From: Nannocystis sp.
Lineage (GTDB): Bacteria > Myxococcota_A > Polyangia > Nannocystales > Nannocystaceae
Assembly (NCBI GenBank): GCA_016712315.1
Contig: JADJRG010000022.1
Span: forward strand, 866,522 to 930,521
Direction: 5' to 3'
DNA: 64,000 bases
The first letter of the stretch is position 1; each line of letters opens with the position of its first letter. Shown here piece after piece: positions 9,157-60,760 of the stretch. The notes under the pieces were generated by a model. The model was not told the DNA's origin, searched no databases, and saw only the letters and a list, made by a program, of their open reading frames with translations. The position numbers and the translations under genes are program-made.

Positions 9157-9295
9157 CCAGGTCAGCGAGGCCGACCCGCTGTCGCTCCGCTCCCTCACCG
9201 CCGCTCGTTTATACGCCGCCGCCGCCCCGCTGTCTGATCGGCGGCCGCGCTCGCCCTGGCCGATCGCGCGGCCGCCGACATCCCCACGCCGACCA

Positions 9296-10396: not shown

Positions 10397-10530
10397 CGAC
10401 ACAACACCTACCACCGCCGCCGATCCTCCACGCGCGTGAGTTTACGGCCACGCAGGCGCGCATCCATGTGAGATCGCACAATCCATCGATCCACCGCCGC
10501 GGCCGCGCCCCCGTGATACGCCAGCTCCCC

Positions 10531-11745: not shown

Positions 11746-11860
11746 GCGCGCCTGAGCGCGCGTAGAAGTCTCCGATCGCCGATCCCGGCGGTGATCGCCG
11801 TCACCCGTCGACGCGCCACTAATTTCCGCGCCGCGCCCTTTCGGCGACACTCCCGCGCAC

Positions 11861-12427: not shown

Positions 12428-12482
12428 TCCCGCCGATGTCGTCGTCGAGCCCCGCGAACGAGCAGCCGCTCGTGCTCCGCCC

Positions 12483-13439: not shown

Positions 13440-13450
13440 AGACCTAACGA

Positions 13451-15346: not shown

Positions 15347-15400
15347 CCGAGCAACCTATCACGGCGAAACCCGCCCCCTCGGGCCTGCTCACGGGCCGGC

Positions 15401-16051: not shown

Positions 16052-16057
16052 GATCGT

Positions 16058-43517: not shown

Positions 43518-43641
43518 CGATCACGCCCACCAACGCGTGGAGATCGAGCATAGGTCCCTCGCACCGCCCCTCGCAAGGCCCACACGTCACGAGCGACGAG
43601 ACTTCGCCCCATCGCAGCCTCACCCCGCTATCTTCCTCGCC

Positions 43642-45390
43642 GTGACTGAGCGCTCCCTCGCCGCGTTCCTCCGCTGGACCGATCATCTCCCGCGGCTGCG
43701 AGGCGCCCCAGGGCTCGCGCTCGAAGCACGCCTCGCCCTCTGGCGGCGAGCCGCCCGTGAGATCGCCGCCCGCACCGCCCTCGCCCTCGCCCGCGAGGGT
43801 CACCTCGCCGCGCAGCTCGAAGGCGCCTCGCTGCGCCTCGATCTACGCCGAGGTCACCTCACCTTGCCCCTCCTGCGCCGGGGCCAGCTCGGCCTGCACA
43901 CCGCCGATCTCGACGCCCCCCGCGAACCCGCCCTCGATCACCCAGACGCCCTCATCACCAGCCTCACCGAGGATCTCCGCCTCGACCCAGCCACCCACGC
44001 CCGCCTCGCCTTCGAGCTCCGCGACTCCGCCTTCAACCTCGCCCTCATCCACCACAGCGCGGCGCTTCGCGAGCAAGCGCGTAGCAGCGCCCCCTGCCGC
44101 TCGCTCGATCCAGAGGGCCTCGTGATCAGCGGCCACCCATGGCACCCCATGACCCGAGCGCGCCTCGGCCTGCGCGCCGCCGAAGTGCTCCGCCACGCCC
44201 CCGAGCACCTCGCCTGCGGCGACCTCAACTTCCTCGACGTGCAGACCGACCACCTCAACGTTAGTGGCGACGCCCTCTCCATCCTCCACGTTCTCGCCCC
44301 CCCCGCACCGCCTGGTTTTATCCGCCTCCCGGTCCATCCGGCCCAGCTCAAGCGCCTACGTCGCCGCTTCGCCGCCCTCTGGGGCCACGTGATCAAGGAA
44401 GCCTCGATCCGTCCGCTCCCCGCCAGAGCCCTGCTCAGCCTGCGCACCGTCGAGATCGCCGACCCCGCGCGCCCCTACCACATCAAGCTCGCCCTCGACG
44501 TCGTCACCACCAGCGCGCGCCGCACCGTCTCACCGATGAGCGTCGCCAACGGTCCCCCCCTCACCGCGCTCCTCCAGCGGATCCAAGCGCGAGATCACCA
44601 CACCCGGCCCCTCGTGATCCAGGGGGATCGAGGCGGCGCCGGCCTCAGCGGGGCTCGCTACGGCGAAGACGCCGCGCACCTAGGCGTCATCCTCCGAGGC
44701 GACCCGAGGCCCATCGCCCGCGCCCTCGCCCCCGCCGATCACCGAGGCGCACCCGTCGATCTCTGGGTCTGCGCCGCCCTCGGCGAGCGCTCGCCGGGCG
44801 CCACCAGCACCTTTTTGCAGCAGCTCGCCGCCGGCCTCGATCCGCGCCGCTTCCTCCGGCGCTACCTCGATCTACTGCTCCCCCCTGCGCTCCGCCTGCT
44901 CACCGCCCACGGCGTCGCCCTCGAGGCCCACCTCCAGAACACCGTCGCCGTACGCGTCGGCGGCCAGCTCGTCGGCTTCCTCATCCGCGACCTCGGCGGC
45001 CTCCGCGTCGATCGCGCGCGCCTCGCCCGCGCTGGTCATCACATGTCCTTCGCGCCAGGTTCATTCATCGTCACCGACGATCACCTCGAGGTCCGCGACA
45101 AGCTCGTACACGCGCTCTTTCACGCCCACCTCGCCGAGCTCTTCCGCTGGGTCGAGCGCGACCTCGGCGTCGACGCCGCCGAGTCGTGGTCGCTCGCTCG
45201 TCGCCTCGTCGATCGCCTCTACTCCGAGTGGCGCCGCGAACCTGCGCTCACCGCCGCCTGCGACGACGATCACGCCGCCCTGATCGCCCCCGTCGTCCGC
45301 GCCAAGGCGCTCCTCACCATGAGGATCACCGATCGGAGCAGCGACTACAGCTACATCCGCGTCGACAACCCCCTCGCCGGCGCGCGCTGA
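43642..45390 (+). CDS. IucA/IucC-family NRPS-independent siderophore (NIS) synthetase
   Basis: Family motifs are ISGHPWHPMTRARLGL (GHPxHP region) and KLALDVVTTSARRTVSPMSVANGPPLT, plus a C-terminal FhuF-like region. A GTG start at 43642 was chosen, because the upstream part of ORF 43336.. overlaps the divergent oxygenase gene and looks non-coding. Confidence 0.8.
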   Translation: MTERSLAAFLRWTDHLPRLRGAPGLALEARLALWRRAAREIAARTALALAREGHLAAQLEGASLRLDLRRGHLTLPLLRRGQLGLHTADLDAPREPALDHPDALITSLTEDLRLDPATHARLAFELRDSAFNLALIHHSAALREQARSSAPCRSLDPEGLVISGHPWHPMTRARLGLRAAEVLRHAPEHLACGDLNFLDVQTDHLNVSGDALSILHVLAPPAPPGFIRLPVHPAQLKRLRRRFAALWGHVIKEASIRPLPARALLSLRTVEIADPARPYHIKLALDVVTTSARRTVSPMSVANGPPLTALLQRIQARDHHTRPLVIQGDRGGAGLSGARYGEDAAHLGVILRGDPRPIARALAPADHRGAPVDLWVCAALGERSPGATSTFLQQLAAGLDPRRFLRRYLDLLLPPALRLLTAHGVALEAHLQNTVAVRVGGQLVGFLIRDLGGLRVDRARLARAGHHMSFAPGSFIVTDDHLEVRDKLVHALFHAHLAELFRWVERDLGVDAAESWSLARRLVDRLYSEWRREPALTAACDDDHAALIAPVVRAKALLTMRITDRSSDYSYIRVDNPLAGAR

Positions 45391-45417
45391 TCGTCAGCTA
45401 CACTGCCCGGAGTTCTT

Positions 45418-47572: not shown

Positions 47573-47650
47573 ACCCGCCCTCTCTCCCAACCAGACGCTC
47601 TCATCCTTGATCAGGTCCCAATAGAGTGCAAGCAAAAAATTAGCGGTACA

Positions 47651-50600
47651 CTAATGCGATAGTGTCGCACATACCCGCACCCCGACGAACTCCGAGCGAT
47701 AACCCGCGTCGAGGGTCTCTCGGGACATCACCCGCATCTGCAGCGCGTCCATCGCGAACCCCCCGCCGCGAGCCACGTAGCTCGACGGCTCGAGCGACGA
47801 CGAGACCCACTCGAACGCGTTCCCAGCCATGTCCTGGACCCCATACGGGCTCGTCGACGCAGGGTACGCGCCGACCTCATCGAGGCCCATCAGGCGCGGA
47901 TCTTGGCCATAGGTCCGGTCGAAATTCGCCTCATTCGGGGCGACGGTGTTCCCATGTGGGTAGAAGCGGGAGTCGGCCCCACGAGCGGCTCGCTCCCACT
48001 CATAGTCCGTACAAAGACGCGCCCCTGGGAGCCGCCCGCTACCGTCCAGCCAGCCGACGTACGCGAGCGCATCGACGGCGGTGATCCCGACGACGGGGTA
48101 TCGCTCCCACACCCCCGGTGTCAAATGACCCCCACCCGGATATGTGAACAATTGCCCGCTCGCGACCTCGTACGGCGCGTCACGGTCCCAAGAGAGCACC
48201 CACGCGCCGGGCCCCTCGCGGCGCAGGGTCCGCGGCATATGCTTCTGGCGCAGCTCCTCGTCTGCTCCCTCGAGGAACTCAATATAATCGGCGAAGGTCG
48301 CCTCATGCGTCGCGATCAAGTAGCTCCCGGTGGAGACTTGATGGAGCGGCACCGCGTTCATGAAGCTGCGCCGCAGATCGGGGTCTCCCGCGCCTCCGAA
48401 CAAGAACCTACCCGCTGGGATGTATGTATATCCCGGCGGAATATCATCGGTCTTGCGCATCGTGACATCGACCGGGAGCCGCTCGTCTCGCTCGACCAAT
48501 ACGGGCAGCTTTAGGTCCGCGTATCCCTCGCTTGTGACAGTCAACAAATAGGATCCTGGATCGACCATCACGGGCTCTAGCGCGCGAACGACGCCTAGAT
48601 CGCGCATCTCCGCCAACCTCGCCTTGCCTCCTTCATCAAACACATAGGCCGCGATCGCCACACGCGCCGCAGGCGGTGTGACCGTGAGGTAGAGGTGCGC
48701 CGCCCCCTTCAGTCGCGCGATCCTGGTCCCCTCGCGGTCATAGAGCGCTAACCGCGCGACCAGCTCATCCCGCGACACACCGCCGTCGAACGCCGCGCCC
48801 TTCTCCAGATGCAGCACCCGCTCAAGCAGGACATCCGCCAAGAACATCCGGATGTCCTCGCGACTATTATCAAGGCTCAACGCCGTCTCCGCCGCCTGGG
48901 AGGCCTCCGCGAATTCACGCGCCGCGACCGCACGCTCCGCCTGCGCCTTGGCCCACAGCTCCTCACCTTGTGCCACCGCCTGGCTATCAAACCACTGGAG
49001 CGCCGCGGCGCTCTGCTGCTGAGCGCTGCGCGCGGACACCTCTGCGTCACCGAGGCGCCGCTGGGCCTCGCGAAAGCTCGCGTCCACACGCTCGCGCAGC
49101 GCCCGCTGCCCTTGCACCCACAGCCCCCCATACGTCGACAGCAGCGCCAGCGGCACCGCGACGATCAACGCCCGCCGCAGCCGCCGCGCCCGCGTCGCCT
49201 CACGCGCGCTCACGACCAGGAACTCCGACTCGCGCGGCCGCAGCCCTGCGTGCTCGATCGTCCCGGCCTCTGCGACCTGGCTCGCGCTCCACAGCCCCAC
49301 CTGTCCGCGGCCGAGTCGCTCCCACTCGCTCGCCGCCGCCTCCAGCCGGTGCAGGACCGCCCGCGCCTCCTTCTCCTCCTCGAGCCAGCCCGCGAGCTGC
49401 GCCCAGCCGCCCACAAGCGCCTCATGCGCGATCTCGTAGACCATCCGCTCGCCGGCCTCTTTGACCACCAGCAGCCGCCCACGCACCAACGCGTCGAGCG
49501 CCGCCTTCGACGCCTCCCCTGCGGCCGCCAGCTCGTCCAACGTCAACGACGCCCGCGTGTTGTCCAGCGTCACCAGGCGCATCAACAAGCGCCGCGCCGC
49601 CGCCCGCTGCGCCGGCAGCAGCCCCGCCAGCACCCCGTCCGCGTGGCGAGCGAGCGCCCCCGTCACCCCGCCGATCTTCCGCAGCTCCGCCGTCGAGATC
49701 ACGGACGTCGACGTGTCGCGGCTCTCCCACAGCTCCGCCAGCGCGAACTGCAAGAGCGGCAGCGATCCCTTCACCCCCGCCTCGACCAGCTCATCGACCA
49801 GCTCATCGCTCTCAAACGCGACCCCGTGCGCCTGCGCTGGCCCGGCGATCGCCTCCCGCGCCCCCTCCGGCGACAGCGGCCGCAGCAGGAAGATCCCCCG
49901 CGTCACCTCATCACCGAGCCCTGGCACCGTCGCCACGCGGGTCAAGAAGTCCCCGCGCACCGTCGCCATCACCTTCAGCCCCGGGATCCCGGCGAGCAGC
50001 CGCACCACCAACGGGCCGATGAGCGCCACCTCCGCCGGCTCCGCGATCGTCACGAACTCCTCGAACTGGTCGATGAAGATCATGCAGCCCCCGGCCTCGC
50101 CGAGCTGCTTCCGCAGCGCCCGCACCAGCGCCTCCGGCTCGCTCTTCAGCAGCGTCGACACCTCCTCCTCGCCGAGCCCGAAGCCCCGCGCCACCACCGC
50201 GACGAACGACTGCCGCGGGTAACGCCCCGGCGTCATGATCACGGTGCGCCACGTCTTGCCAGGGTCGAGGTTCCCCTCGTTCACCATCGGCACCACGCCT
50301 GCGCGGCACAGCGACGACTTGCCGACCCCTGAGTCGCCCGCGACCACCACGAACGAGTCCGCGCGCAGACGCTCGACCACCGCGCGGATCTCAGCCGAGC
50401 GGCCGAAGAACAGCGAGCGGTGCTCCGCCTCGAACGCCTGCAGCCCGCGGTACGGGTTCCCGGTCGGGATCCCCGGCCCCCCGCGCCGCTGCGGCGCCGC
50501 CACGACCTCGAGCGCGCTGCGCAGCTCCTCCGCCGAGGCGAAGCGCTGGTACGGGTCTCGCTCGAGGCAACGATCGATGATCCCCGCCAGGCGCGCGTCC

Positions 50601-51583
50601 ACACCTGGCGCGAGGGACAGCAGCGGCAGCGGCTCCTTCTCCTGCACCAGCATCGCCAGGTCGAACGGAGAGTCCGCGTCGTGCGGCGGCTTACCGCAGC
50701 AGAGGATGTACATCAGCACGCCGAGCGCATACACGTCAGAGCGCCGCGACGCCGGATCAGCCAGCCACAGCTCCGGCGCCATGTAGTGAGGCGTGCCCAT
50801 CACCGTGCCTTGCCGGGTGATCGACGCCGCCCCCCCGCTCCACCCGTCCTTGAAGCGCGGGCTCTCGTCGACGCGGCGCTGCACCTTCGGCGTCGGCGCG
50901 TTGCCGGCCACCGGCTCGAGCTTCGCCGTGTCCGCGAGCCGCTGCACGACCATCTGGCGGGCGTTGTTCGCCGCCCGCATCACCAGGTCCTGCCTCGTCT
51001 CCGGGACGATCCCCCGCTGCGTCGACGAAGCAGACGACGACGCGATCGTCCGGTCACCTGGCACATCGACCAGCTTCGCCAGGCCGAAGTCCAGCAGCTT
51101 CACCTGCCCGAACTCGTCGATCAGCGCGTTCGAGAGCTTGATGTCGCGGTGCAGCACCCCTTGCCGGTGAGCCGCCCCAAGCCCGCGCGCCAGCCCGATC
51201 CCGATCTCCAGCACCTTCGCCCACGGCAGCGGCAGCTCCAGGTCCCCGAGGCTCTGCCCGCGGATGTACTCCGAGACCAGATACAGCCGCCCCTGGATCT
51301 CCCCCACCCGGTAGATCCCCATCACGTTCGGGTGCTGAATCCGCGCGACCGCCCGCGCCTCCACCAAGAAGCGCTCGCGCTCGACCGGGTCGGGCCGAAA
51401 CGACCCCAAGAACTTCACCGCGACCGGCCGGTCGAGCACCAGATCCTGGGCGAGGAAGACCTGCCCCATGCTGCCGCGGCCGAGCGGCCGGACGATCCGG
51501 TACTCATCAAACTCGCCGGGGGGCGTCCACGTCGCCTCTTCAAGCACCCGCGGCCCTCCTCGGCGCGCGTGGATCGCCAGCAC
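47651..51583 (-). CDS. Ser/Thr protein kinase fused to STAND (NACHT-like) NTPase and a C-terminal formylglycine-generating-enzyme (FGE-sulfatase) domain
   Basis: Kinase motifs HRDIKLSNAL and DFGLA. The P-loop is VVVAGDSGVGKSSL. The C-terminal 300 aa carry FGE-sulfatase signatures (ARGGGFAMD, YRSEFVGVRVC). Confidence 0.85.
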   Translation of the reverse strand: MLAIHARRGGPRVLEEATWTPPGEFDEYRIVRPLGRGSMGQVFLAQDLVLDRPVAVKFLGSFRPDPVERERFLVEARAVARIQHPNVMGIYRVGEIQGRLYLVSEYIRGQSLGDLELPLPWAKVLEIGIGLARGLGAAHRQGVLHRDIKLSNALIDEFGQVKLLDFGLAKLVDVPGDRTIASSSASSTQRGIVPETRQDLVMRAANNARQMVVQRLADTAKLEPVAGNAPTPKVQRRVDESPRFKDGWSGGAASITRQGTVMGTPHYMAPELWLADPASRRSDVYALGVLMYILCCGKPPHDADSPFDLAMLVQEKEPLPLLSLAPGVDARLAGIIDRCLERDPYQRFASAEELRSALEVVAAPQRRGGPGIPTGNPYRGLQAFEAEHRSLFFGRSAEIRAVVERLRADSFVVVAGDSGVGKSSLCRAGVVPMVNEGNLDPGKTWRTVIMTPGRYPRQSFVAVVARGFGLGEEEVSTLLKSEPEALVRALRKQLGEAGGCMIFIDQFEEFVTIAEPAEVALIGPLVVRLLAGIPGLKVMATVRGDFLTRVATVPGLGDEVTRGIFLLRPLSPEGAREAIAGPAQAHGVAFESDELVDELVEAGVKGSLPLLQFALAELWESRDTSTSVISTAELRKIGGVTGALARHADGVLAGLLPAQRAAARRLLMRLVTLDNTRASLTLDELAAAGEASKAALDALVRGRLLVVKEAGERMVYEIAHEALVGGWAQLAGWLEEEKEARAVLHRLEAAASEWERLGRGQVGLWSASQVAEAGTIEHAGLRPRESEFLVVSAREATRARRLRRALIVAVPLALLSTYGGLWVQGQRALRERVDASFREAQRRLGDAEVSARSAQQQSAAALQWFDSQAVAQGEELWAKAQAERAVAAREFAEASQAAETALSLDNSREDIRMFLADVLLERVLHLEKGAAFDGGVSRDELVARLALYDREGTRIARLKGAAHLYLTVTPPAARVAIAAYVFDEGGKARLAEMRDLGVVRALEPVMVDPGSYLLTVTSEGYADLKLPVLVERDERLPVDVTMRKTDDIPPGYTYIPAGRFLFGGAGDPDLRRSFMNAVPLHQVSTGSYLIATHEATFADYIEFLEGADEELRQKHMPRTLRREGPGAWVLSWDRDAPYEVASGQLFTYPGGGHLTPGVWERYPVVGITAVDALAYVGWLDGSGRLPGARLCTDYEWERAARGADSRFYPHGNTVAPNEANFDRTYGQDPRLMGLDEVGAYPASTSPYGVQDMAGNAFEWVSSSLEPSSYVARGGGFAMDALQMRVMSRETLDAGYRSEFVGVRVCATLSH

Positions 51584-51731: not shown

Positions 51732-52706
51732 ATGCAGACGCGCACGCTCGCCGGCTATGAGCACGTCTATGAGCTCGAGTGCGCGGGCAGCCGCGCCTTC
51801 ATCGCCATCCACGCCGCCCTCCGCGGCCGCGCCTTCGGAGGCGTCCGGATCCGCGCCTATGCCAGCGACGAGCACGCCCTCACCGACGCCCTCGCGCTCG
51901 CCGAGGCGATGACCCGCAAGGTCGTGCTCGCCGGCATCGACGGCGGCGGCGCCAAGTCCGTGCTGCGACTCCCGCCCCCGCATCGCCGCGCCGCAGCGAT
52001 CCACCAGCTCGGCCGCTTCATCGACTCCTTGGGCGGCCGCTACCAGTGCGGCGGCGACTACGGCTTCACCGCCGCGGACGAGGCTGTCCTCCGCGCCGCC
52101 ACGCGCCACGTCGCCTGCGGCGATCTCGCCGAGGCGACCGCCCGCTCCGTCGAGCTCGCGATCTTCGCCGCCGCGGACCCGCGCGTCGTCGCCCTCCAGG
52201 GCCTCGGCGCGGTCGGTCGCCCGCTCGCCCGCCGCCTCCTCGCCCGCGGCGTCCGGGTCATCGCCGCCGACCCTACCTGGCCCGAAGACCTTGTCCCTGG
52301 GGACACCCTGCAACGCGTCGATCCTGCCGCGATCTACGGCGTCGACTGCGACGTCTTCGCCCCCTGCGCGCACGGCGGCGTGCTCGACGCGTCGACGATA
52401 CCGCGCCTGCGCGCCGCCCTCGTCTGCGGCGCCGCCAACAACCCCTTCGCCGCCGCCGACGACGTCGACCGCCTCAACGCCCGCGGCGTCGCCTACATCC
52501 CCGACGTCATCGCCAACGCGGGCGCCACCATCGTCGGCGCCTCCAACGCCCTCGACGAAGAGGCCCACATCGACCGTCGCTTCGCCGCGATCCCCGCGCT
52601 CATCCACGATCTCCTCGATCGCTCCCGCAGCGAGCGCCGCTCCACCCACTGGATCGCCCACGAGCTCGCCGACCAGCGGATCGCCGCGCTGCGCCGCCCC
52701 GCCTAG
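51732..52706 (+). CDS. Glu/Leu/Phe/Val dehydrogenase family protein (leucine-dehydrogenase-like)
   Basis: The Gly-rich catalytic region is LAGIDGGGAKSV and there is a Rossmann segment (LQGLGAVGRPLARRL). The start is ATG 51732. Confidence 0.8.
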   Translation: MQTRTLAGYEHVYELECAGSRAFIAIHAALRGRAFGGVRIRAYASDEHALTDALALAEAMTRKVVLAGIDGGGAKSVLRLPPPHRRAAAIHQLGRFIDSLGGRYQCGGDYGFTAADEAVLRAATRHVACGDLAEATARSVELAIFAAADPRVVALQGLGAVGRPLARRLLARGVRVIAADPTWPEDLVPGDTLQRVDPAAIYGVDCDVFAPCAHGGVLDASTIPRLRAALVCGAANNPFAAADDVDRLNARGVAYIPDVIANAGATIVGASNALDEEAHIDRRFAAIPALIHDLLDRSRSERRSTHWIAHELADQRIAALRRPA

Positions 52707-53251
52707 CGCTGCAGCGCGTCGATCTGCTCGAGCACCAGCGCCGACGTCGGCCGATCGGAGCTGCGCTCGCCGATGTACTGCCACACGATCACGCCCTCTC
52801 GACTGATCACGAACACCGCCGGGATCGCCACCTCGCCATCAACGACGCCGTAAGCTCGAGCGATCCCGAGCCCCACATCCTGGACCAACGGGAACTCGAT
52901 CCCCAGCTTCGCCGCGAACTTCTTCGAGTCCTCCGGCGGATCAGCGCTGATCCCGACGATCCCCACCGAACGCGCCGCCAGCTCCCCCTGAATCTTCGCC
53001 AAGTCGCCGAACTGGCGACGACAGAAGGGTCACCAAAACCCCCTGTAAAAGACCAGCACCGCCGGCCCCTGCGCCCGTAGCGCGCCCAGGCTGACCGCGC
53101 CGCCCGCCGCGTCGACCGCCGAGAATTCTGGCGCTGCGCTCGCGCTCTTCGGCGCCGCTGGATCGGGCGCCGACACCTTACACGCCAGCCCCAGCGCCAC
53201 CCCGGCCAGCATCGACAACAGCCCGCGACGTCCCTTCGTCATGGTCACCAT
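52703..53251 (-). CDS. thioredoxin-fold redoxin (AhpC/TSA-TlpA-like) lipoprotein with in-frame TGA at the first Cys of its WCxxC motif. Candidate selenoprotein, or else a pseudogene.
   Basis: Track ORFs 53030..53251 and 52703..53002 are in the same frame. They are separated only by TGA (53030-53032) plus 9 sense codons. The read-through gives ...VLVFYRGFW-[TGA]-PFCRRQFGDLAKIQ..., which is the classic redox-motif position. The N-terminus has a lipobox (GLAC). Confidence 0.5.
53003..53019 (-). other. SECIS-like RNA hairpin immediately downstream of the in-frame UGA
   Basis: In the mRNA: UGA, then 10 nt, then a perfect 6-bp stem GUCGCC/GGCGAC with the apical loop AGUUC, which contains GU. The loop G is about 18 nt from the UGA, within the usual bacterial SECIS range. 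Confidence 0.4.
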
Positions 53252-53252
53252 T

Positions 53253-54356
53253 CTAACCCGAGTTCACCGCTCGCTGGTCATCCGCCGCCCCGATCGCCGC
53301 GCAAGGACCCGGCGCCCCCGGCAACGACAGGCAATACGCGACGAACGCCTCAAACACCGGCCGCGGCGCGCCCACCGTCGGCAGCGCGTGGTAGTGCAGC
53401 GCAGGCAGCGCGTTCACCTCGAGGATCGCCGCCTCCCGCCAAGCCTCCGCGCCACCTCGCGGCGCCCGCACAAACGAGGCCAGCGGCCCGCGCAGATCCA
53501 CCCCGCCCACGTCCACCCCCAAGCGAGCGCACGCCGCCTCCGCGACCTCGAACCATGCACGATCGATCGCGTCGCTACGATCGATCACCTCCGCCTCCTC
53601 GCTCGTGATCTCGATCGATGCGCCGGCCGGCAGCGGCTCCTCCAGATCGAGCCCCAGCGCCTCGAGGTGCGCCGCCATCGCCTCCTCCGCCTCGATCACG
53701 TCCATCGCCACCAGCGCCGGCGCGGCCCACGACCCCCGCCGAGGATCCTCATTCAACGCCGCGATCGCCGCCGCCGCGCTCGTGACACCGTCCCCGCGCA
53801 GCAGCGGCCGCACGATCTCCGCCGCCGCCACGCAGCGCCCGCCGATCACCGTCAGCCGCACGTTCGTCCCCTCCAGGTGCGGCTCCAGCAGCGCCTCCTC
53901 GTCGCGGTCGATCGCCTGAGCCCGCGAGATCGCCCGCGCAAGCCCCTCCATCTCCCTGATCCCCGGCGTCACGCCGACCCCGCGGTTCCCCCAGTTCGGC
54001 TTCACCACCACCGCCCCAAAGCGCCGCAAGAAGCCCTGCGCGGCCGCTCCGCGCGGATCATCACCTTCATCCAAGAGCAGGTCTGGAGGGACAGGTAGGC
54101 CGATCGCCGCCAGCAGCTCCCTGCTCACCTTCTTGTTGTTCGACAGCGTCTGCGCCACCTGCGTCAAGAACGGCGAGCGCGTCTTCGAGATGATCACCGA
54201 GCGCCCCTCCCCACGCAGCCGCAAGAAGAAGTCCGTGCGCGCCTGGCTCAGCGGCTCCGCCTTCGCCCCCAGCCGCGCCGCCGCCTGCATGATCAGCAGG
54301 TTCGTCCGGCTCCACCGCCGCGCGCGCGCCCCCTCGTCCTCGTGCTCGGCGCTCAT
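53253..54356 (-). CDS. ATP-grasp ligase, cyanophycin-synthetase-N-terminal / RimK-like
   Basis: The segment SKTRSPFLTQVAQTLSNNKKVSRELLAAIGLPVPP...FGAVVVKPNWGNRGVGV parallels the CphA ATP-grasp region (...KPLDGNHGRGV). There is no Mur-ligase part. It is 1 nt from the redoxin start, and its own start overlaps speE by 4 nt. Confidence 0.7.
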   Translation of the reverse strand: MSAEHEDEGARARRWSRTNLLIMQAAARLGAKAEPLSQARTDFFLRLRGEGRSVIISKTRSPFLTQVAQTLSNNKKVSRELLAAIGLPVPPDLLLDEGDDPRGAAAQGFLRRFGAVVVKPNWGNRGVGVTPGIREMEGLARAISRAQAIDRDEEALLEPHLEGTNVRLTVIGGRCVAAAEIVRPLLRGDGVTSAAAAIAALNEDPRRGSWAAPALVAMDVIEAEEAMAAHLEALGLDLEEPLPAGASIEITSEEAEVIDRSDAIDRAWFEVAEAACARLGVDVGGVDLRGPLASFVRAPRGGAEAWREAAILEVNALPALHYHALPTVGAPRPVFEAFVAYCLSLPGAPGPCAAIGAADDQRAVNSG

Positions 54357-55261
54357 AACGAGGGCAACGTCAACGACGCCATCGCCTCGGCGCCGGTGAT
54401 CACCTTCCCTGGCTCTTCGAGCAGCTCCGCCAGCAGCGGCGGGATCGTCAACGCCGCCTCATGGGCGATCCGCGAGTACACCCGCAGCCCCGTCAACCGC
54501 CGGATCCTCGCCTCGAGATCCGCGGGCATCGCCACGATCGGCGCGCAGCTCGCCAGCGTGAACGCCCACAGGCAGTGAAAGGACGGCACCATCGCCAGCA
54601 GCACCCGCACGTGCGGGAACACCGAGGCCAACGTCGATCGCACCGTCCGCAGCGCGCTCAGGTCGACCGGGTCCGCCTCCCCCGACTGCACCACCAAGAT
54701 CCCGTCTTCCGCCATCACCCGCCGCACCTGCTCAAAGAACGGCGCGCTCCACAAGTGCAGCGAAGGCCCCTCCTCCACCGGATCTGTCAGATCGGCGATC
54801 ACCACATCCCAAGCCCCATCCGCCGAGCCCGCCAGCGTCGCCATAAAATCCTCCGTGCGCGACTCGACCCGCGGATCCTCAAACGCCCCTGCGCTCCACC
54901 CTGGCAGGTGCTCGCGGCACAGCGCCACCACCTCCGCGTCGACGTCCACCGCCACCACCGACTCGATCGTCGGGTGCCTTAGCACCTCACGCAGCGTCGC
55001 TCCTTCGCCCGTGCCGCCGATCAGCACACGCCGAGGCGCCCCGTGGATCACCAGCGCCGGGTGGATCAACAGCTCGTGATACATCGCCTCATCCGCGGCC
55101 GTCGACTGGACGTGCCCGTCCAGGAACAGCGCGCGCCCGTAGCCGGGCGTATCCGCGATGATCACCTCTTGAAACGGCGTCTCACGGCGGACGATCAGCC
55201 GCTCCACCTCGATCTCGATCGCCACCCCGCCGTACGACGGCTCCTTCACGAAGATCGGCAC
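54353..55261 (-). CDS. speE: spermidine synthase-like aminopropyltransferase
   Basis: VLIGGTGEGATLREV...VVAVDVD...VIADLTDP matches the SpeE SAM and polyamine sites. There is an N-terminal tetramerisation-like region. Confidence 0.85.
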   Translation of the reverse strand: MPIFVKEPSYGGVAIEIEVERLIVRRETPFQEVIIADTPGYGRALFLDGHVQSTAADEAMYHELLIHPALVIHGAPRRVLIGGTGEGATLREVLRHPTIESVVAVDVDAEVVALCREHLPGWSAGAFEDPRVESRTEDFMATLAGSADGAWDVVIADLTDPVEEGPSLHLWSAPFFEQVRRVMAEDGILVVQSGEADPVDLSALRTVRSTLASVFPHVRVLLAMVPSFHCLWAFTLASCAPIVAMPADLEARIRRLTGLRVYSRIAHEAALTIPPLLAELLEEPGKVITGAEAMASLTLPSL

Positions 55262-55831
55262 CTACACACGCTCCTCTCGTCGCCTCTTGGCTACCACGTC
55301 TCCCTCGCGGCGCGCTCGCCCAGGCCGCCTCGAGATCACGAAGCCGCTCGCGAGCAGCCCCAGCAGCGCGAGCCCCGTCATCGCGCTCAGCGCGCTCCCG
55401 CTCGCCCCCAGCGCCTCGCCCGTGTGGATCGCGAACAGCCACCCGGTCAGCCCGCGCCGCTTGGACGGCGCCGCCTCGATCACCGCCAGCGATCCGTCGA
55501 GCAGCACCCGCGTCTCCGCCTCATCATCGAGCCACACTTGATACGGCTCCTCTGTCCCTGAGGGCAGGGTGATATCCGTCACCGCAGCCCCGCCCGCCGC
55601 CGCCGACGCCGCCGCCGCCAGCGCGTCCAAGCTCGGCCTCGTGCTCGTCGTCGCCGTCACCCGCGGCAGCGGCGTCCGCAGCGCCTCGCGGAAGATCAGC
55701 GCGATCCCGCTCACCGTCACCGTGGCGATCAGCAGCGCTGAAGCCAGCCCGATCCACCGGTGCCACCGCCGCCACGCCCGCCCGCTCATAGCCACTGCCC
55801 CACCCGCCACGGCGTACGCATCCGCGCCCAC
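55262..55831 (-). CDS. PepSY-associated TM helix protein
   Basis: The motif WRRWHRWIGL is followed by a TM helix, a periplasmic segment and a second TM helix. This type of protein is commonly encoded next to TonB-dependent siderophore receptors. The true start may be at MSGRAW (about 55789). Confidence 0.65.
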   Translation of the reverse strand: MGADAYAVAGGAVAMSGRAWRRWHRWIGLASALLIATVTVSGIALIFREALRTPLPRVTATTSTRPSLDALAAAASAAAGGAAVTDITLPSGTEEPYQVWLDDEAETRVLLDGSLAVIEAAPSKRRGLTGWLFAIHTGEALGASGSALSAMTGLALLGLLASGFVISRRPGRARREGDVVAKRRREERV

Positions 55832-58254
55832 GCGTCGATCCGCCGCGCCCCGATCGCCCCCGCCGTCCCCCGCTGCTTCGCCCGCCGCGCCTCCGCCTGC
55901 GCCCGCGCCCCGCGCGGCAAGAAGTCATGCGCGAAGCCCAGGCTCAAGTAGAACGTCCGCGGTCGCATCGCCAAGATCCCGCGGTTCTCATCGTCGGTGC
56001 GCATGAACCACGACTCATTGAGCAGGTTCTTCACCCCGAAGGTCACCTCGATCTGCCACGCGTCGGGCAGCGGCGCGCGCAGCCGCGCGAACGCCCCCAT
56101 CAGCGTATACGCCGGAATTTGCCCCGTCGCCCCGCTCGCGTCGAAGCCCGCGGGTTTGTTCGCGTAGTCCGTAAACTGCGGGCTGTTGTGGCTGACGTCC
56201 GCCCCCAGCTTCAGCCCGAACGGCCACGCGTACTCCGCCGACCCCCACACCTCGTGCGACGGGTACCACGCCAACCGGTTGCCCTTGTACTGCCCCGCCG
56301 AGATCCTGCTCTCGGTCCACGAGTAGCCGGCGCTCACCCCCAGCCCCTCCGCCGCCTCCCAGATCTCACCTGGCTCCCAGGACACCTCCGTCTCGATCCC
56401 CCACACGTGCGCCCCCGCGATCCGATCGATCATCGTCTCGCCCACGTCCGAGAGGTCTTGATAGTGGCGATACCAGCCCGTCACGTCCGCCTCAACCCCC
56501 GCCAGCTCCATCAGCTTCACCCCGCCCTCCACCATGTCGGCGATCTCTGGGTTGAGCTGGAAGTTCATGTCGCTGGTCGCCGTATCGACCTGCAAGAACT
56601 GTGAAGGCCCGAACGAGCGCCCGTAGCCGGCGAATATCGCCACCTCATCGATCGGCCCGAACCACAGCGACCCCGCGGGCAGCACCTGCCAATACGTCCG
56701 CGACAGCGCCCGCTGGCTCAGGTTATTGCGCCCCGCCAAGCTCGCCACCTCCAGCCGCGCGCCGCCGGTGATCACCAGCCGCGAGTCCAGCAGGTTCAGC
56801 TTATCGTCCACATACAGCGCGTAAGCGGCGATCCGCGCGTCCGAGTCCCGGCGGATCTGCGGGTCAGGTTGGTCCTGGTCGAGCGTCAGCCCCTCGCAGC
56901 TCGCCGCCAGCGCCCCGCTGTATACCCCTGGCTGATCGGGCGGCGAGAGCTCCCGGCACTCGCGGCTGCGCCCGCGCTCCAGCATCACCCGCCCGCCGAA
57001 GGACACGTCCTGGAACGCCTCGTTCTTGTGGCGGATCCGCAGCGCGTAGCGCGGCTCGATCCCTCCAACGTCATAGCGACGCGGCCGAAAGTACAGCGTC
57101 GGCGGCTCGTTCTCCAGGCTACGCAGCCGCTCCATCACCGACATCCGCGTCGTGTGGTTAAAGAAGACGATCGTCTGCAGCTCATGATCCTCGCGCGGGC
57201 GCCAGCGAGCGCGCAGCGCCGTGCCGATCCGATCGCCGATGAACCGATCATACGGCCGCACCGAGCGGAAGCGATCCCCCTCGGTGTACTGCTTCTCATC
57301 CAGCCCGCCTGGCAAGTTTGAGGCCTCGTAGAACAAGTGCGTCGTCGACTGCACGTCCAACGATCGCCTCGGCGAGTACGCCAGCTTGACGAGCCCCCCG
57401 TGCGCCTGGAACTCGCTGTGTTGCCGGTAGTTCCGGCCGAAGCGCGGCGCGTACTCGAAGTACATACCCAAGCCCCGGTGCGTGCCCCCGTACGAGGCCG
57501 CCGCGCCCGCGTCACCGAACTGATCCGACTGCGCGAACACGGCGATCCGCGGGTTCTGCGGGATCGGCTTCGAGATCAAGTTAAAGACCCCGCCCGAGGT
57601 CCGCGGCCCGAAGCGCACCGACGAGCCGCCGCGCACCACGTCGTAGTTATCGATCGAGAAGATCGACAGCGGGAACAAGCTGAGCTGCGGCTGCCCGTAC
57701 GGAGCCGGCGCGATCGGCACCTCATCCAACATCACCGTCGCCTCCGAGGAGAGCCGCGGGTTCGCCCCGCGCACGCCCACGTTCAGCTTCGTGCTCGTCG
57801 ACCCGATCCCCGCGTTCCCCTCCACCGAGCGCACCCCTGCCGCGCGGTCCAGCACCTCGCCCACCGACGAAGAGCCGCGGTCCTTCGCCGCCTCGCTCGT
57901 GATCGTCGAGCGCCCGCCGGCGTGCCGGAACAGATCGAAGCGAGACGCCGTGCCCAGCAGATCCGTCGTCACCACGATCAGCCGGCGCATCCCCCCCGCG
58001 TCGTCATCCTCGCCCTCCGCCTCCTCGCCCCCCGCCTCCGCGATCGGGCGCGCCCGCGCCGGCGCGATCGCCTCCTCCTCAGGCGGCGCCTCGTCCGGCA
58101 GCTCCTCCGCGCTCGCCGCGATCGGCGACCTGTCTTCCGAAGCAGGCGAGACCTCCCGGGACGGCGACGCCACCGACTCCGGCCCGACGAACACGCGCTC
58201 GACCGGCGGCGCGGCGGCCAGCGCCAGCGCCACCCCTACAAGAAGCGCCGCCAT
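55786..58254 (-). CDS. TonB-dependent outer-membrane receptor
   Basis: Signal peptide, then a plug domain (NAGIGSTSTKLNVGVRGANPR...DVVRGGSSVRFGP), then a long beta-barrel. The canonical terminal strand RTFYLSLGFAHDF is present but is followed by a further 44 aa with no stop. Confidence 0.85.
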   Translation of the reverse strand: MAALLVGVALALAAAPPVERVFVGPESVASPSREVSPASEDRSPIAASAEELPDEAPPEEEAIAPARARPIAEAGGEEAEGEDDDAGGMRRLIVVTTDLLGTASRFDLFRHAGGRSTITSEAAKDRGSSSVGEVLDRAAGVRSVEGNAGIGSTSTKLNVGVRGANPRLSSEATVMLDEVPIAPAPYGQPQLSLFPLSIFSIDNYDVVRGGSSVRFGPRTSGGVFNLISKPIPQNPRIAVFAQSDQFGDAGAAASYGGTHRGLGMYFEYAPRFGRNYRQHSEFQAHGGLVKLAYSPRRSLDVQSTTHLFYEASNLPGGLDEKQYTEGDRFRSVRPYDRFIGDRIGTALRARWRPREDHELQTIVFFNHTTRMSVMERLRSLENEPPTLYFRPRRYDVGGIEPRYALRIRHKNEAFQDVSFGGRVMLERGRSRECRELSPPDQPGVYSGALAASCEGLTLDQDQPDPQIRRDSDARIAAYALYVDDKLNLLDSRLVITGGARLEVASLAGRNNLSQRALSRTYWQVLPAGSLWFGPIDEVAIFAGYGRSFGPSQFLQVDTATSDMNFQLNPEIADMVEGGVKLMELAGVEADVTGWYRHYQDLSDVGETMIDRIAGAHVWGIETEVSWEPGEIWEAAEGLGVSAGYSWTESRISAGQYKGNRLAWYPSHEVWGSAEYAWPFGLKLGADVSHNSPQFTDYANKPAGFDASGATGQIPAYTLMGAFARLRAPLPDAWQIEVTFGVKNLLNESWFMRTDDENRGILAMRPRTFYLSLGFAHDFLPRGARAQAEARRAKQRGTAGAIGARRIDAWARMRTPWRVGQWL

Positions 58255-58256
58255 GG

Positions 58257-59444
58257 CTACGGCTCGACCACGACGCGGGTCGCCCCGCGCAGGCGCAGGC
58301 TCTCGATCGGATCGTCGAAGAGCGGCGAGAGATCGTCGTGCACCACCACCGACCAGACATCCGGCTGCTCCGGCGTCGGCTCGATCACCCGGTACACCAG
58401 CCCCAGCGGATCGATCCCATAAAGGACCCCATCGACCCGCGCCAGCCCGTCGATGTCGCGGCCCGCCAGCAGCCCGTCGATCACCACCCCCGTCGACGCA
58501 GGGGCCGCCCCAGGCGCCGCCATATCGACGTGGAACAGCGCATTACGATCCACCGGCATGATCGCCGGATCCTCCGCCCGCACCGCCGCCAGCAGCCGCC
58601 CTTGCGGGTCCTCCGTCAGATCGCCCGCGACCCCCACACGATCCTCAAACAGCGCCTCCACTTCGCAGAGCGGGGCGCACGCGTAGTACTTCGGGTCCAA
58701 CGTGCGGTCGTTCGGGAACACGCAGTGCGACGGCGCCTCGAGGAACGAGCTCGGGATCGAAAAGACCCCTCCCCGCGCGTCGAAGCCGTTGCCCGCCTTA
58801 CCCGCCGAACCGACCACCAACGTGTCACCAACGAAGCCCAAGCCGCTGAGCATCTGCCGCCAGTAGCACGCGTCCGTAGCCGCGTCTGAGACCGGCCCAG
58901 GCATGAACGTATAGCGCTCGACCGCCACGTGGTTGTCGGTGCGTCGCCAGTCCGGCACCGTCAACGACACCAGCCCCCATTCATCGTTCAACGCGTCGTA
59001 GCTGAGCCCCCACAGCCCGCGCTGCGGGTGCCACGCCAGGTCACGCACGCCGAAGCGCTCCAGCGAGCCGTCGCCGACCGACAGCGCGCCCATCGAATCG
59101 TCCAGCCACAGGTGCCCGACCCGCGCCAGCCGACAGCCCGACCCGCCGTCTTCACACTCACGGCGCGGATCGTAGAGGTACAAACCAGCGCCGATGTAGC
59201 GCCCCTCGCCGTCGATCGCGAAGTTCGCGGTGAAATTCGAGCGCGGCCCGCTCAGCTTGGCGTTCACCAGCAAGATCGCCTCGCCGCTGGTCACCTGCTC
59301 CGAAGAACAGCCCGGACAGACCTCGATCTCCGCCGGCAGGCCGTCCCCTGCGAAGCCCGTCGGCGGCTCGACCGTCAGCTCGACGCAGCCACCGAGCAAC
59401 ATCACGACACCGGCCCATCGATGAAAACTGAAAATCACTTTCAT
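58257..59444 (-). CDS. hypothetical lipoprotein, first gene of the receptor operon
   Basis: The signal peptide MKVIFSFHRWAGVVMLLGGC starts at ATG 59442-59444. The rest is a beta-rich domain. The gene ends 2 nt before the receptor gene. Confidence 0.6.
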   Translation of the reverse strand: MKVIFSFHRWAGVVMLLGGCVELTVEPPTGFAGDGLPAEIEVCPGCSSEQVTSGEAILLVNAKLSGPRSNFTANFAIDGEGRYIGAGLYLYDPRRECEDGGSGCRLARVGHLWLDDSMGALSVGDGSLERFGVRDLAWHPQRGLWGLSYDALNDEWGLVSLTVPDWRRTDNHVAVERYTFMPGPVSDAATDACYWRQMLSGLGFVGDTLVVGSAGKAGNGFDARGGVFSIPSSFLEAPSHCVFPNDRTLDPKYYACAPLCEVEALFEDRVGVAGDLTEDPQGRLLAAVRAEDPAIMPVDRNALFHVDMAAPGAAPASTGVVIDGLLAGRDIDGLARVDGVLYGIDPLGLVYRVIEPTPEQPDVWSVVVHDDLSPLFDDPIESLRLRGATRVVVEP

Positions 59445-59480
59445 TTTCTTGAGAGTGGTTATCACTGGAAACCGCCTCGG

Positions 59481-59572
59481 TCAACCGGCCAGGTGGTCCT
59501 TCCGCGATGTGAGATTTTCAATATTGCAATTGATTCTTATTTTCATTAAACACCTTGGAACGGTAACAAGCA
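59481..59572. promoter_or_regulatory. AT-rich divergent promoter region with Fur-box-like hexamer repeats
   Basis: This is the only strongly AT-rich intergenic stretch in the window. In operon orientation it reads TTAATGAAAATAAGAATCAATTGCAATATTGAAAATC. By hand alignment it contains GAAAAT/AAGAAT/CAATTG-type hexamers and matches GATAATGATAATCATTATC at about 13/19 positions. Confidence 0.35.
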
Positions 59573-60760
59573 ATGTCTCGCAGCTTCATTCTTTCTAGCC
59601 CCCTCCTCGCGCTCCTGCTCATCACCGCCTCTGGGTGCGCTGGGGACGACAGCTCCACCACCGCCGACACAGACACCGGCACCGACACCGACACCGACAC
59701 CGGCGACGCGGGTCAACTCGGCGACGAAGCCTCGCAAGCCTGCCGAGACGCCATGCTCGCCTGGCCCGCCCTGCTCGCCGCGACCGACGCGCCCACCGTC
59801 GAGGCCGCCTACGTCGGCTCGGCCATCCAAGACTACCTGCGCGCCAGCGACCCCGAAGGCGCCCGCGGCGACGACGCCGCCATCCTCGCGGCGATCGCGG
59901 ACGGCAGCGCCCCCGCCCTCGCTGGCGTCGCCCCACGCGCGAGGGCCGGCCTCGCCGCTCGCCTGCGCCAAGAGATCGCCGCCCCCGAGATGCTCGTCGA
60001 AGATCCCTACGCCGCCTGGGACGAGGGCTACTGCCTCTGGAGCGGCGCTCTGGAGCCGCTCGCGGAGGTCGCCGCCCTCGCGTCCACGAGCGACAGCGAG
60101 CTCGTCAACCAGATCTCCGCCGCGTTCACCGAAGGCCGCGCCGGCATCAGCGGCCAGCCCCCGGCCGCCGCCATCGACGACTGGAAGGTCCCGCCCGCCA
60201 AGCAGATCATCGAGAAGAGCCTCTTCACCGCCGCCGCTCGCGTCATCATCATCGAGGCCAAGTCCGCGGCCGCCGGCGATCTCAGCGCAGCGCGCCGCGC
60301 CCTCGAGCTCTTCGGCCTGGTCCGTGATCGCCTCGAAGGCCGCAACACCCCCGGCATCGCCGTCATCGAGGGCATGCTCAGCGACCCCGGAGCCACCATC
60401 GACCCCGCCGAGATCGAGCGCCAGATGGCGATCGCGTTCGCCAAGCGCACCCGTAAGTACTGCGACGAGGCCCTCCTGACCGGTCTTATCGGCGCCCCCG
60501 CCGGCTACAAGGGCGCCGTCGAAGGCCGCACCTATTTCAAACTCATCGCCCCCGACATGGCCGCGCGCCTCAGCGCCGAAGGCTTCGACGCCGCCGCCCA
60601 CGCCGCCGCCTGGGACAGCTACGTCGACGGCGTGCGCAGCGGCGACGACATCAACGCCCTCACCGATCTCGCCGCCGATCTCGTCGAGTGGAACTGCGCC
60701 TATCAAGCCGCGCTCGGCATCGCCGCCTGCACCGCCAGCGACGATCAGCCGGGCGCCTGA
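59573..60760 (+). CDS. hypothetical lipoprotein (TD-repeat linker), divergent from the receptor operon
   Basis: Lipobox ITASGCA. The linker is TDTGTDTDTDTG, and the rest is an Ala-rich helical domain. Confidence 0.65.
   Translation: MSRSFILSSPLLALLLITASGCAGDDSSTTADTDTGTDTDTDTGDAGQLGDEASQACRDAMLAWPALLAATDAPTVEAAYVGSAIQDYLRASDPEGARGDDAAILAAIADGSAPALAGVAPRARAGLAARLRQEIAAPEMLVEDPYAAWDEGYCLWSGALEPLAEVAALASTSDSELVNQISAAFTEGRAGISGQPPAAAIDDWKVPPAKQIIEKSLFTAAARVIIIEAKSAAAGDLSAARRALELFGLVRDRLEGRNTPGIAVIEGMLSDPGATIDPAEIERQMAIAFAKRTRKYCDEALLTGLIGAPAGYKGAVEGRTYFKLIAPDMAARLSAEGFDAAAHAAAWDSYVDGVRSGDDINALTDLAADLVEWNCAYQAALGIAACTASDDQPGA

Follow-up and report, generated by a model that had tools for sequence, protein, structure and literature searches.

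Why should an aminopropyltransferase and a stand-alone ATP-grasp ligase be encoded in one operon with a TonB-dependent receptor? The question is raised by a locus of Nannocystis sp. on contig JADJRG010000022.1, of which a stretch of 64,000 nt with a G+C content of ~70% was analysed (the window). An original prediction, made from the sequence, had seen in this operon an iron-regulated metallophore pathway that starts from a polyamine. On balance we consider it probable that the locus provides Fur-controlled uptake plus biosynthesis of a citrate/polyamine siderophore of the NIS type (made independently of nonribosomal peptide synthetases), and that this system is specific to the Nannocystaceae. 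It is placed in this known siderophore class by an IucA/IucC synthetase gene, which is present in the window and, in other genomes, stands beside the genes for aminopropyltransferase and ligase. The genes concerned are listed here together with the short names used below; calls rest on open reading frames (ORFs), on G+C at third codon positions (GC3) and on profile searches.

59573..60760, plus strand: divergent lipoprotein (lipoDiv), 395 aa, lipobox ITASGC, called by ORF and GC3
58257..59444, minus strand: lipoprotein (lipoB), modelled as a five-bladed beta-propeller, 395 aa, lipobox LLGGC
55786..58254, minus strand: TonB-dependent receptor (TBDR), FecA-like, with Plug and barrel domains
55262..55789, minus strand: short PepSY_TM protein of the inner membrane, 175 aa, Pfam PF03929 (61.8 bits)
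54353..55261, minus strand: SpeE-like protein, predicted aminopropyltransferase, 302 aa, Pfam Spermine_synth and N-terminal domain
53253..54356, minus strand: stand-alone ATP-grasp protein, predicted ligase, 367 aa, found by NCBIfam and PDB profile search
52703..53251, minus strand: redoxin lipoprotein with AhpC/TSA fold and predicted selenocysteine; UGA at 53030-53032, SECIS-like (selenocysteine insertion sequence) hairpin at 53003-53019
43639..45390, plus strand: NIS siderophore synthetase with IucA/IucC and FhuF domains (Pfam), ~583 aa
45418-46353, plus strand: phosphoribosyl-pyrophosphate (PRPP)-synthetase-like (ribose-phosphate-diphosphokinase-like) gene, directly 3′ of the IucA/IucC gene

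The operon and its conservation

Six ORFs of coding type according to GC3 occupy 52703-59444 on the minus strand. Their junctions were read directly and amount to +2 nt (lipoprotein/TBDR), -4 nt with an ATGA overlap (TBDR/PepSY_TM), 0 nt (PepSY_TM/SpeE-like), -4 nt, again with ATGA (SpeE-like/ATP-grasp), and +1 nt (ATP-grasp/redoxin). The six tightly packed genes of the original prediction were confirmed in this way, and all of its domain calls were recovered by Pfam and NCBIfam. A terminator scan returned one weak terminator-like site, at the lipoB/TBDR junction, which is fewer than in shuffled sequences, and an Rfam scan of 52.0-60.8 kb gave no riboswitch or SECIS family and one chance small RNA match (E 0.86). 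A Logan contig of 10 kb is identical in sequence to the window.

The ATP-grasp family comprises 231 matches, the best 120 of which are all at least 55% identical; named ones all belong to the Nannocystaceae or Myxococcales. When plasmids were searched with the ATP-grasp protein by tblastn, only cphA and ngg were found. For the species survey, one genome per species was taken, which gave 40 loci with the ATP-grasp gene (working labels L0xx), and architectures were assigned by tblastn of the window proteins, plus added queries, against these loci. They originate from Nannocystis (six named species or strains), Enhygromyxa salina (three strains), Plesiocystis pacifica, and metagenome-assembled genomes (MAGs). 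All except two (38 of 40) are labelled Nannocystaceae or parent taxa, the exceptions being a MAG labelled Enterobacteriaceae, which is probably mis-binned, and a Deltaproteobacteria MAG.

The SpeE-like and ATP-grasp genes are adjacent in 39 of the 40 loci, while in P. pacifica two genes are inserted between them. In half of the loci (20), including all Nannocystis genomes and the clade of the window, lipoDiv is divergent from a contiguous series lipoB-TBDR-PepSY_TM-SpeE-ATP-grasp (architecture A). Five loci have the uptake genes followed by a divergent gene for a homospermidine-synthase-like (HSS-like) protein and then by the SpeE/ATP-grasp pair (architecture B), so that the order lipoprotein, TBDR, PepSY_TM, SpeE-like, ATP-grasp is found in ~25 of the 40 species genomes. 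A further 12 loci, Enhygromyxa and Plesiocystis among them, have the HSS-like gene divergent from the pair and no receptor within 10 kb (architecture C). Two MAGs carry a one-strand cluster (architecture D), and the remaining locus is a short contig with the pair only. The gene order is conserved across the Nannocystaceae, as the original prediction had proposed, and the co-localisation is not confined to a single genome.

The HSS-like gene stands beside the pair in 17 of the 40 loci. Its product has a saccharopine-dehydrogenase fold and the sole solved relatives are bacterial homospermidine synthases (E ~1e-10). In the window, tblastn detected no HSS-like gene, no S-adenosylmethionine decarboxylase (AdoMetDC) domain and no exporter of the major facilitator superfamily (MFS).

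In Enhygromyxa salina (L002/L035, 2795-6453 and 11041-12246), the SpeE/ATP-grasp pair is followed by a gene for a membrane-anchored protein with metallo-beta-lactamase fold. A nearby unit, which codes for a 601-aa lipoprotein, a 402-aa ferritin-like or desaturase-like protein and a PepSY_TM protein, replaces the TonB-dependent receptor.

A NIS synthetase gene near the pair in several loci

In the window, the IucA/IucC gene is located 7.3 kb beyond the redoxin gene, separated from it by unrelated genes, which code for a kinase, an ADYC-domain protein and a Leu/Phe-dehydrogenase-like protein. Its best NCBIfam match is FslA (rhizoferrin), and its PDB matches are AsbB (petrobactin), AcsD and IucC. 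The window synteny (IucC, PRPP-synthetase-like gene, ADYC, kinase and, further on, the operon) is kept in L053, with operon proteins that are ~58-76% identical.

In other genomes the synthetase gene is found close to the pair. Homologues, 35-47% identical, occur within ~5 kb of the SpeE/ATP-grasp genes in 11 distinct loci, and in 8 of these they are directly beside the pair or in its operon. The gene is convergent and follows directly after the ATP-grasp gene in L010, L019, L027, L037, L038 and L039; it follows after ~1.4 kb in L022 and after ~3.4 kb in L003. It shares a same-strand operon with the pair in L040/L049 (MAG LC016, JAKFCH010000003.1) and in L043, and only there an MFS exporter gene occurs with these genes. 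At L049 (2414-16802), a one-strand cluster behind the box TGATAATCACTTTCA has the order 710-aa protein, lipoB (three copies), TBDR, PepSY_TM, IucA/IucC, MFS, AdoMetDC::SpeE, ATP-grasp, AdoMetDC::SpeE, FAD_binding_3, and this compact cluster is the best candidate for heterologous expression. The original prediction had built the pathway on the SpeE-like protein and the ATP-grasp ligase and had overlooked the synthetase gene. Probably the pathway is not limited to these two enzymes, given the synthetase gene 7.3 kb away in the window and beside the pair elsewhere; the IucA/IucC synthetase is the probable missing partner of the two enzymes.

A second line of evidence comes from relatives outside the family. 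An exhaustive profile search ranked, right behind the ATP-grasp family proper, a small number of stand-alone proteins with lengths of ~330-350 aa. Two of these (P0268, P0261) could be located, one representing a 98-member Paenibacillus cluster (a 90%-identity cluster whose named members are all Paenibacillus) and the other residing on one further Logan contig. Over its full length, the Paenibacillus protein shares 33% identity with the window ATP-grasp. In both cases the ATP-grasp gene heads a series that continues with Aminotran_3, MFS, two copies of IucA/IucC, HpcH/HpaI aldolase and ornithine/diaminopimelate decarboxylase (L050 and L051, ~8000-17000), and one of the two clusters adjoins FecCD/FhuF uptake genes. 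This context identifies the ATP-grasp clade as a recurrent component of NIS siderophore clusters. The Paenibacillus-type cluster itself is apparently uncharacterised. There is precedent for ATP-grasp ligases in siderophore pathways, namely PvsA of vibrioferrin (PMC4431377, PMC5577590), and for polyamine backbones of NIS siderophores, namely rhizoferrin and petrobactin (PMC7857480).

The IucA/IucC-FhuF gene and the ribose-phosphate-diphosphokinase-like gene form a pair (43639-46353, plus strand) that also occurs in N. exedens and in a MAG relative (L052 10001-12750, L053 10001-12663), and a gene for a 2-oxoglutarate/Fe(II) oxygenase (42900-43517) is divergent from the IucA/IucC gene.

Fur-type boxes at the operon promoter

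The spacer 59448-59572, upstream of lipoB, contains the lowest-GC 100-nt stretch of the window (0.37 versus a mean of 0.70). It had been described as the only AT-rich intergenic region; while it is indeed the most extreme, there are two further AT-richer stretches, at ~1204 (0.42, intergenic, with a threefold 18-nt repeat) and at ~47379 (0.45, within a 15-nt coding repeat). The following elements were assigned in and next to the spacer.

59531..59545, unstranded: upstream Fur-type box, minus-strand sequence TGAAAATAAGAATCA, located ~100 nt 5′ of the lipoB ATG, with TTGCAA after the box
59479..59484, minus strand: conserved -35-like TTGACC, from an alignment by eye of 24 orthologous upstream regions
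59458-59465, minus strand: conserved -10-like GGTG(A/C)TA(A/C), 13 nt downstream of TTGACC, from the same alignment
59429..59443, unstranded: second Fur-type box, over the lipoB start codon, minus-strand sequence A-TGAAAGTGATTTTCA, coding for M K V I F

The reference is the delta-proteobacterial Fur box WTGAAAATNATTTTCAW, which has been derived by Rodionov et al. upstream of feoAB and fur (PMC545781). The palindromes span 15-17 bp and the consensus has 17 bp with 16 specified positions, of which the 17-mer at the upstream box matches 13 and the one at the start codon 14. With up to 2 mismatches, TGAAAANNNTTTTCA occurs once in the 64 kb (59429-59443), compared to 0 occurrences in 50 shuffles, and across 787 kb of related loci nearly all matches of this type fall at the orthologous promoter. 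In the aligned upstream regions of 24 distinct loci, an AT-rich palindrome TGAAAAnnnTTTTCA is found 89-157 nt before the lipoB ATG; a second copy covers the start codon in orthologues, where M-K-V/T-I-F is encoded by ATGAAAGTGATTTTCA. Most sites in these loci match WTGAAAATNATTTTCAW at 12-15 of 16 positions, with 10-11 for a few upstream sites, and the start-codon box reaches 13-15 in nearly all orthologous loci. The Fur-like promoter of the original prediction has in this sense proved to be a conserved element with two sites.

Footprinting of this kind is strong evidence for a Fur-family operator pair, and iron is the presumed metal of the regulator. The pair of TTGACC and GGTG(A/C)TA(A/C) presumably functions as the promoter; a strict sigma70 scan called no promoter, the TTGACC element included.

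Boxes of this type might instead belong to a Zur-type regulator that controls a metallophore for another metal such as zinc, similar to the cnt operons for pseudopaline and staphylopine. Actinobacterial Zur boxes also read TGAAAATNATTTTCA, and cnt operons link a TonB-dependent receptor to a SAM-dependent aminoalkyl transferase. We consider this very improbable. The box fits the published Fur box of the delta-proteobacteria, while the Zur boxes given for that group differ (PMC545781). The FecA-like receptor, the FhuF domain, the PepSY_TM protein and the IucA/IucC synthetase are all associated with iron, and the SpeE-like protein does not resemble nicotianamine synthase.

The SpeE-like and ATP-grasp enzymes

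The SpeE-like protein matches Pfam Spermine_synth with 125 bits and the N-terminal tetramerisation domain with 36.7 bits. It scores below the equivalog cut-offs of NCBIfam (PRK00811, 237.1 versus 260; TIGR00417, 194.6 versus 249.55), which marks it as a divergent member of the family, so that its substrate cannot be inferred by equivalog transfer. The best PDB match, with 188 bits, is the triamine/agmatine aminopropyltransferase 1UIR from T. thermophilus, and thermospermine synthase is next. The glycine-rich motif G.GEGA, DE..YHE and D....D.TDP are invariant in 39 family members. By its sequence, it is predicted to be a polyamine aminopropyltransferase from the clade of triamine/agmatine aminopropyltransferases and thermospermine synthases. 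The L040 and L043 orthologues occur as fusions with an AdoMet decarboxylase domain (AdoMetDC::SpeE). These fusions argue for genuine aminopropyl transfer that depends on decarboxylated S-adenosylmethionine, and the window protein would use the same donor.

The ATP-grasp protein aligns only to the G-domain region of CphA (profile positions 196-468 of 871) and to GshAB and Ngg, which indicates an amide-forming ligase rather than a cyanophycin synthetase. Lys119, Glu313 and Asn315, which we take to be nucleotide and Mg2+ residues of the ATP-grasp fold, are invariant across the family, and close family members all have 335-377 aa. Cyanophycin synthetase was rejected for this protein, which has 367 aa and lacks the M (Mur-ligase) and N domains of CphA (~870 aa).

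A second aminopropyltransferase under metal control could also serve the cell envelope, the modified polyamine stabilising the outer membrane when cations are limiting. P. aeruginosa PA4773-PA4775 (speD2/speE2) reportedly provides such a polyamine under cation limitation and would be a precedent. As an explanation of the present locus this is highly improbable; it leaves the NIS synthetase, the MFS exporter, the FecA-like receptor and the NIS context of the Paenibacillus relatives unexplained.

The uptake genes

The model of lipoB is confident (pLDDT 88.5) and shows a five-bladed beta-propeller for which structural neighbours are only distant; the lipoprotein would be exposed at the surface or face the periplasm. 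Pfam gave no family match, DUF4374 included, and XusB was not among the matches of the fold searches. The divergent lipoDiv is syntenic with lipoB in ~17 loci and in P. pacifica; it is predicted to be all-alpha and had no Pfam or PDB match, neither as a single sequence nor as an 11-sequence profile.

The sole PDB relative of the receptor is E. coli FecA (263 bits). The NCBIfam model for FecA yields 324 bits, with a cut-off of 1100, and the alignment begins past the signalling domain; an STN domain was detected neither by Pfam nor by NCBIfam. True FecA was rejected on account of the low score and the lack of an STN domain, so the receptor is termed FecA-like. Its N-terminus is acidic and of low complexity over ~90 aa. 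At the other end, an Arg-rich tail extends ~45 aa past the canonical terminal Phe (55786-55925, minus strand). All orthologues (L003-L045) run 20-60 residues past this Phe and are Arg/Lys-rich there, often ending with GGWL, GAWL or VWF. One possibility is that the tail is a periplasmic contact with the PepSY_TM protein, the ATG of which overlaps the stop codon of the receptor gene and which has two transmembrane segments with HRW and HTG motifs.

As an alternative to metallophore synthesis, the original prediction had considered a module for import and processing of a polyamine conjugate. Such a conjugate, or a foreign siderophore, would enter through the receptor, and the cytoplasmic SpeE-like and ATP-grasp enzymes would modify or recycle this cargo. 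The window operon does lack an exporter, and the PepSY_TM protein and the FhuF domain suggest that something is handled after uptake. Both the transfer of aminopropyl groups and ligation with ATP are anabolic, however, the genes of L040 and L043 are found together with an MFS exporter and with AdoMetDC fusions, and the Paenibacillus relatives belong to biosynthetic clusters, which makes import followed by processing quite improbable.

A proposed siderophore pathway

If the locus makes and imports a citrate/polyamine siderophore, Fur with bound Fe(II) would block transcription and iron limitation would permit expression of the operon. The aminopropyltransferase would extend a di- or triamine to an unusual polyamine backbone, elsewhere together with the HSS-like enzyme. 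The FslA/AsbB-like IucA/IucC synthetase would attach citrate to primary amines of this backbone, and the ATP-grasp enzyme would add a further amide bond, comparable to the ester bond proposed for PvsA in vibrioferrin. The ferric complex, being of citrate type, would return through the FecA-like receptor with the help of the lipoprotein, and the PepSY_TM protein and FhuF domain would release the iron reductively.

We tentatively suggest a more specific product, which is possible without being the likely outcome: a new siderophore class in which a long or branched polyamine, e.g. aminopropylated homospermidine, is capped by citrate. Aminopropyl transfer from decarboxylated S-adenosylmethionine would then be a dedicated tailoring step, possibly acting on a citryl-polyamine intermediate instead of a free amine, and the CphA-type ATP-grasp enzyme would close or extend the chelator. 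For the first time, a siderophore pathway would then be provided with an aminopropyltransferase and AdoMetDC of its own, and uptake would involve a new lipoprotein, the five-bladed propeller, and a receptor whose C-terminal tail is basic.

Several observations weigh against the assignment as a siderophore locus. Every functional step is inferred, and an exporter gene was not found in or beside the window operon. A Fur box is not recognisable upstream of the IucA/IucC gene in the window, L053 and N. exedens, and in N. exedens the IucC/PRPP-synthetase-like pair is megabases away from the operon. The SpeE/ATP-grasp pair of Enhygromyxa, Plesiocystis and the HSS-containing loci is preceded by a separate, GC-rich promoter devoid of a Fur box, and the HSS-like/SpeE intergenic spacers that were searched contain none; from such promoters in Enhygromyxa, Plesiocystis and some MAGs it follows that co-regulation with the receptor is lineage-specific. 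In P. pacifica, the receptor module (lipoDiv divergent from lipoB-TBDR) and the SpeE/ATP-grasp genes are at separate loci. Finally, the distribution over a single family means that adjacency could partly reflect shared ancestry and not selection.

Much of this would also be accounted for by the main rival explanation, according to which the lipoprotein, TBDR and PepSY_TM protein import ferric citrate or a xenosiderophore and the SpeE-like, ATP-grasp and HSS-like proteins are an unusual housekeeping polyamine pathway that happens to be encoded nearby. The pair occurs alone, with its own promoter, in at least 12 loci, the synteny may be inherited, and the SpeE-like protein keeps all canonical aminopropyltransferase motifs; the separate receptor module of P. 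pacifica and the distance of IucC from the operon in Nannocystis point the same way. However, the link to TBDR and PepSY_TM recurs in three architectures, in one of which NIS synthetase and MFS exporter genes are part of the same one-strand cluster, preceded by a Fur box. The nearest outside relatives of the ATP-grasp protein reside in siderophore clusters, and we know of no canonical polyamine pathway that uses an ATP-grasp ligase. We regard the housekeeping explanation as unlikely.

For the iron-regulated polyamine metallophore of the original prediction, the outcome is mixed. It is supported by the Fur-type element, by the conserved gene order and by the context of NIS synthetase, MFS exporter, AdoMetDC, HSS-like gene and Paenibacillus clusters, while the implied co-regulation holds for some lineages only. 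The product that it had put forward as one possibility, an aminopropylated amine ligated to Glu or Asp, would be a more specific variant.

Comparison with known systems

The closest known systems each share a part of the arrangement. The vibrioferrin locus (pvsABCDE-pvuA of Vibrio parahaemolyticus) is iron-regulated and combines genes for IucA/IucC enzymes with those for the ATP-grasp enzyme PvsA, for MFS export, for supply of the amine and for a TonB-dependent receptor (PMC5577590, PMC4431377). There, the amine is ethanolamine from a decarboxylase, and aminopropyltransferase, HSS-like enzyme, lipoprotein and PepSY_TM protein do not occur; the likeness of the window ATP-grasp to PvsA that is shown here is one of genomic context. 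In the rhizoferrin (FslA/LbtA) and petrobactin/rhodopetrobactin (AsbA/AsbB) pathways, IucA/IucC enzymes condense citrate onto putrescine, spermidine or homospermidine (PMC7857480). The window synthetase matches FslA and AsbB best, and a FecA-like receptor suits a citrate-type ligand. These pathways draw on housekeeping polyamines and have no ATP-grasp enzyme, whereas in the Nannocystaceae aminopropyltransferase(s), AdoMetDC fusions and an HSS-like gene cluster with the synthetase. The Paenibacillus NIS cluster also unites an amine-building module with NIS synthetases, ATP-grasp enzyme, exporter and uptake genes, but its amine would be a diamine made by aminotransferase and decarboxylase, and uptake is of the Gram-positive ATP-binding cassette type.

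On the uptake side, XusABC of Bacteroides is a xenosiderophore uptake system consisting of lipoprotein, TBDR and PepSY_TM protein. By analogy, the beta-propeller lipoprotein gene of the window is beside the receptor gene, with a PepSY_TM gene after it; unlike in XusABC, lipoB has no DUF4374 match and the PepSY_TM protein is short with two transmembrane segments, and biosynthetic genes are not part of XusABC. By sequence and among solved structures, the ATP-grasp protein is best related to the CphA1 G domain, GshAB and Ngg, from which it differs in being stand-alone, without the N or M domains of CphA1. The SpeE-like protein shares the motifs GGxGEGATLREVL and DLTDP with the Thermus thermophilus enzyme 1UIR and thermospermine synthases. 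Those enzymes serve bulk polyamine synthesis, while the SpeE-like gene is part of a Fur-box operon with a siderophore receptor.

The original prediction knew of no description of such an operon. This holds for the gene combination, for which full-text literature searches found no description, and a survey of bacterial aminopropyltransferases mentions neither myxobacteria nor siderophores (PMC11107197). It does not hold for the class, as an iron-regulated NIS locus with TonB-dependent receptor, ATP-grasp partner and polyamine backbone is known. What appears to be new is the presence of dedicated aminopropyltransferase(s) with AdoMetDC and HSS-like enzyme in a NIS locus, and likewise the lipoB propeller and the receptor with its tail.

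The Nannocystaceae are prolific and under-explored producers of natural products. To our knowledge, the only siderophores described from this family are the nannochelins, which are citrate-hydroxamates, and the locus predicts a second, chemically different iron chelator on a custom polyamine. Confirmation would extend the logic of NIS siderophores to dedicated aminopropyl transfer, would give a function to the stand-alone CphA-like ATP-grasp ligases, an orphan clade to which the widespread ones of Paenibacillus belong, and would supply the study of iron regulation in myxobacteria with a clean pair of Fur operators. Cultured strains that carry the genes are N. exedens DSM 71, N. punicea FL3, N. 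pusilla Na p29, E. salina and P. pacifica SIR-1, so that the predictions are directly testable.

The redoxin gene, a recent passenger

To be a single ORF, the last gene of the operon requires readthrough of an in-frame TGA (53030-53032). The TGA takes the first Cys position of a CxxC motif (FYRGFW-U-PFC), and both the codon and the flanking peptide are kept in 6 of 6 orthologues, which identifies it as a selenocysteine codon and not an error. The sequence indicates a UxxC selenoprotein. A hairpin with a G/U-containing loop starts 13 nt after the U codon and is also present in 6 of 6 orthologues; it shows no covariation, its sequence being nearly invariant among them. A sequencing error or broken gene was rejected because of the conservation in 6 genomes. 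No tRNA gene was found in the window.

Synteny of redoxin and of the Leu/Phe-dehydrogenase-like gene downstream is confined to the closest relatives of the window. There, a gene for a sigma54 activator (enhancer-binding protein), which is missing in the window, separates the ATP-grasp and redoxin genes, and so redoxin joined the operon only in the lineage of the window. It is a recent passenger, absent from the locus elsewhere, and its status as a conserved operon member could not be upheld.

Other features of the window

Two giant Ser/Thr kinase-NTPase proteins of STAND type are encoded at 47651-51583 and 5344-9426, both on the minus strand. The former has an FGE-sulfatase-like domain at its end, and its synteny with the operon is kept in the closest relatives. 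The window also codes for a cNMP-binding kinase (16831-18912) and a response-regulator adenylate cyclase (18918-19973).

Both of the other AT-richer stretches contain repeats. A perfect 18-nt direct repeat (TTTCTCAACCAAGAAATC) occurs three times at 1243-1296, in the intergenic stretch. At 47272-47472, a 15-nt tandem repeat of ~13 copies, with higher-order periods of 30, 45 and 60, lies in the N-terminal part of the ADYC-domain gene (46445-47635, minus strand) and is accordingly of pentapeptide type.

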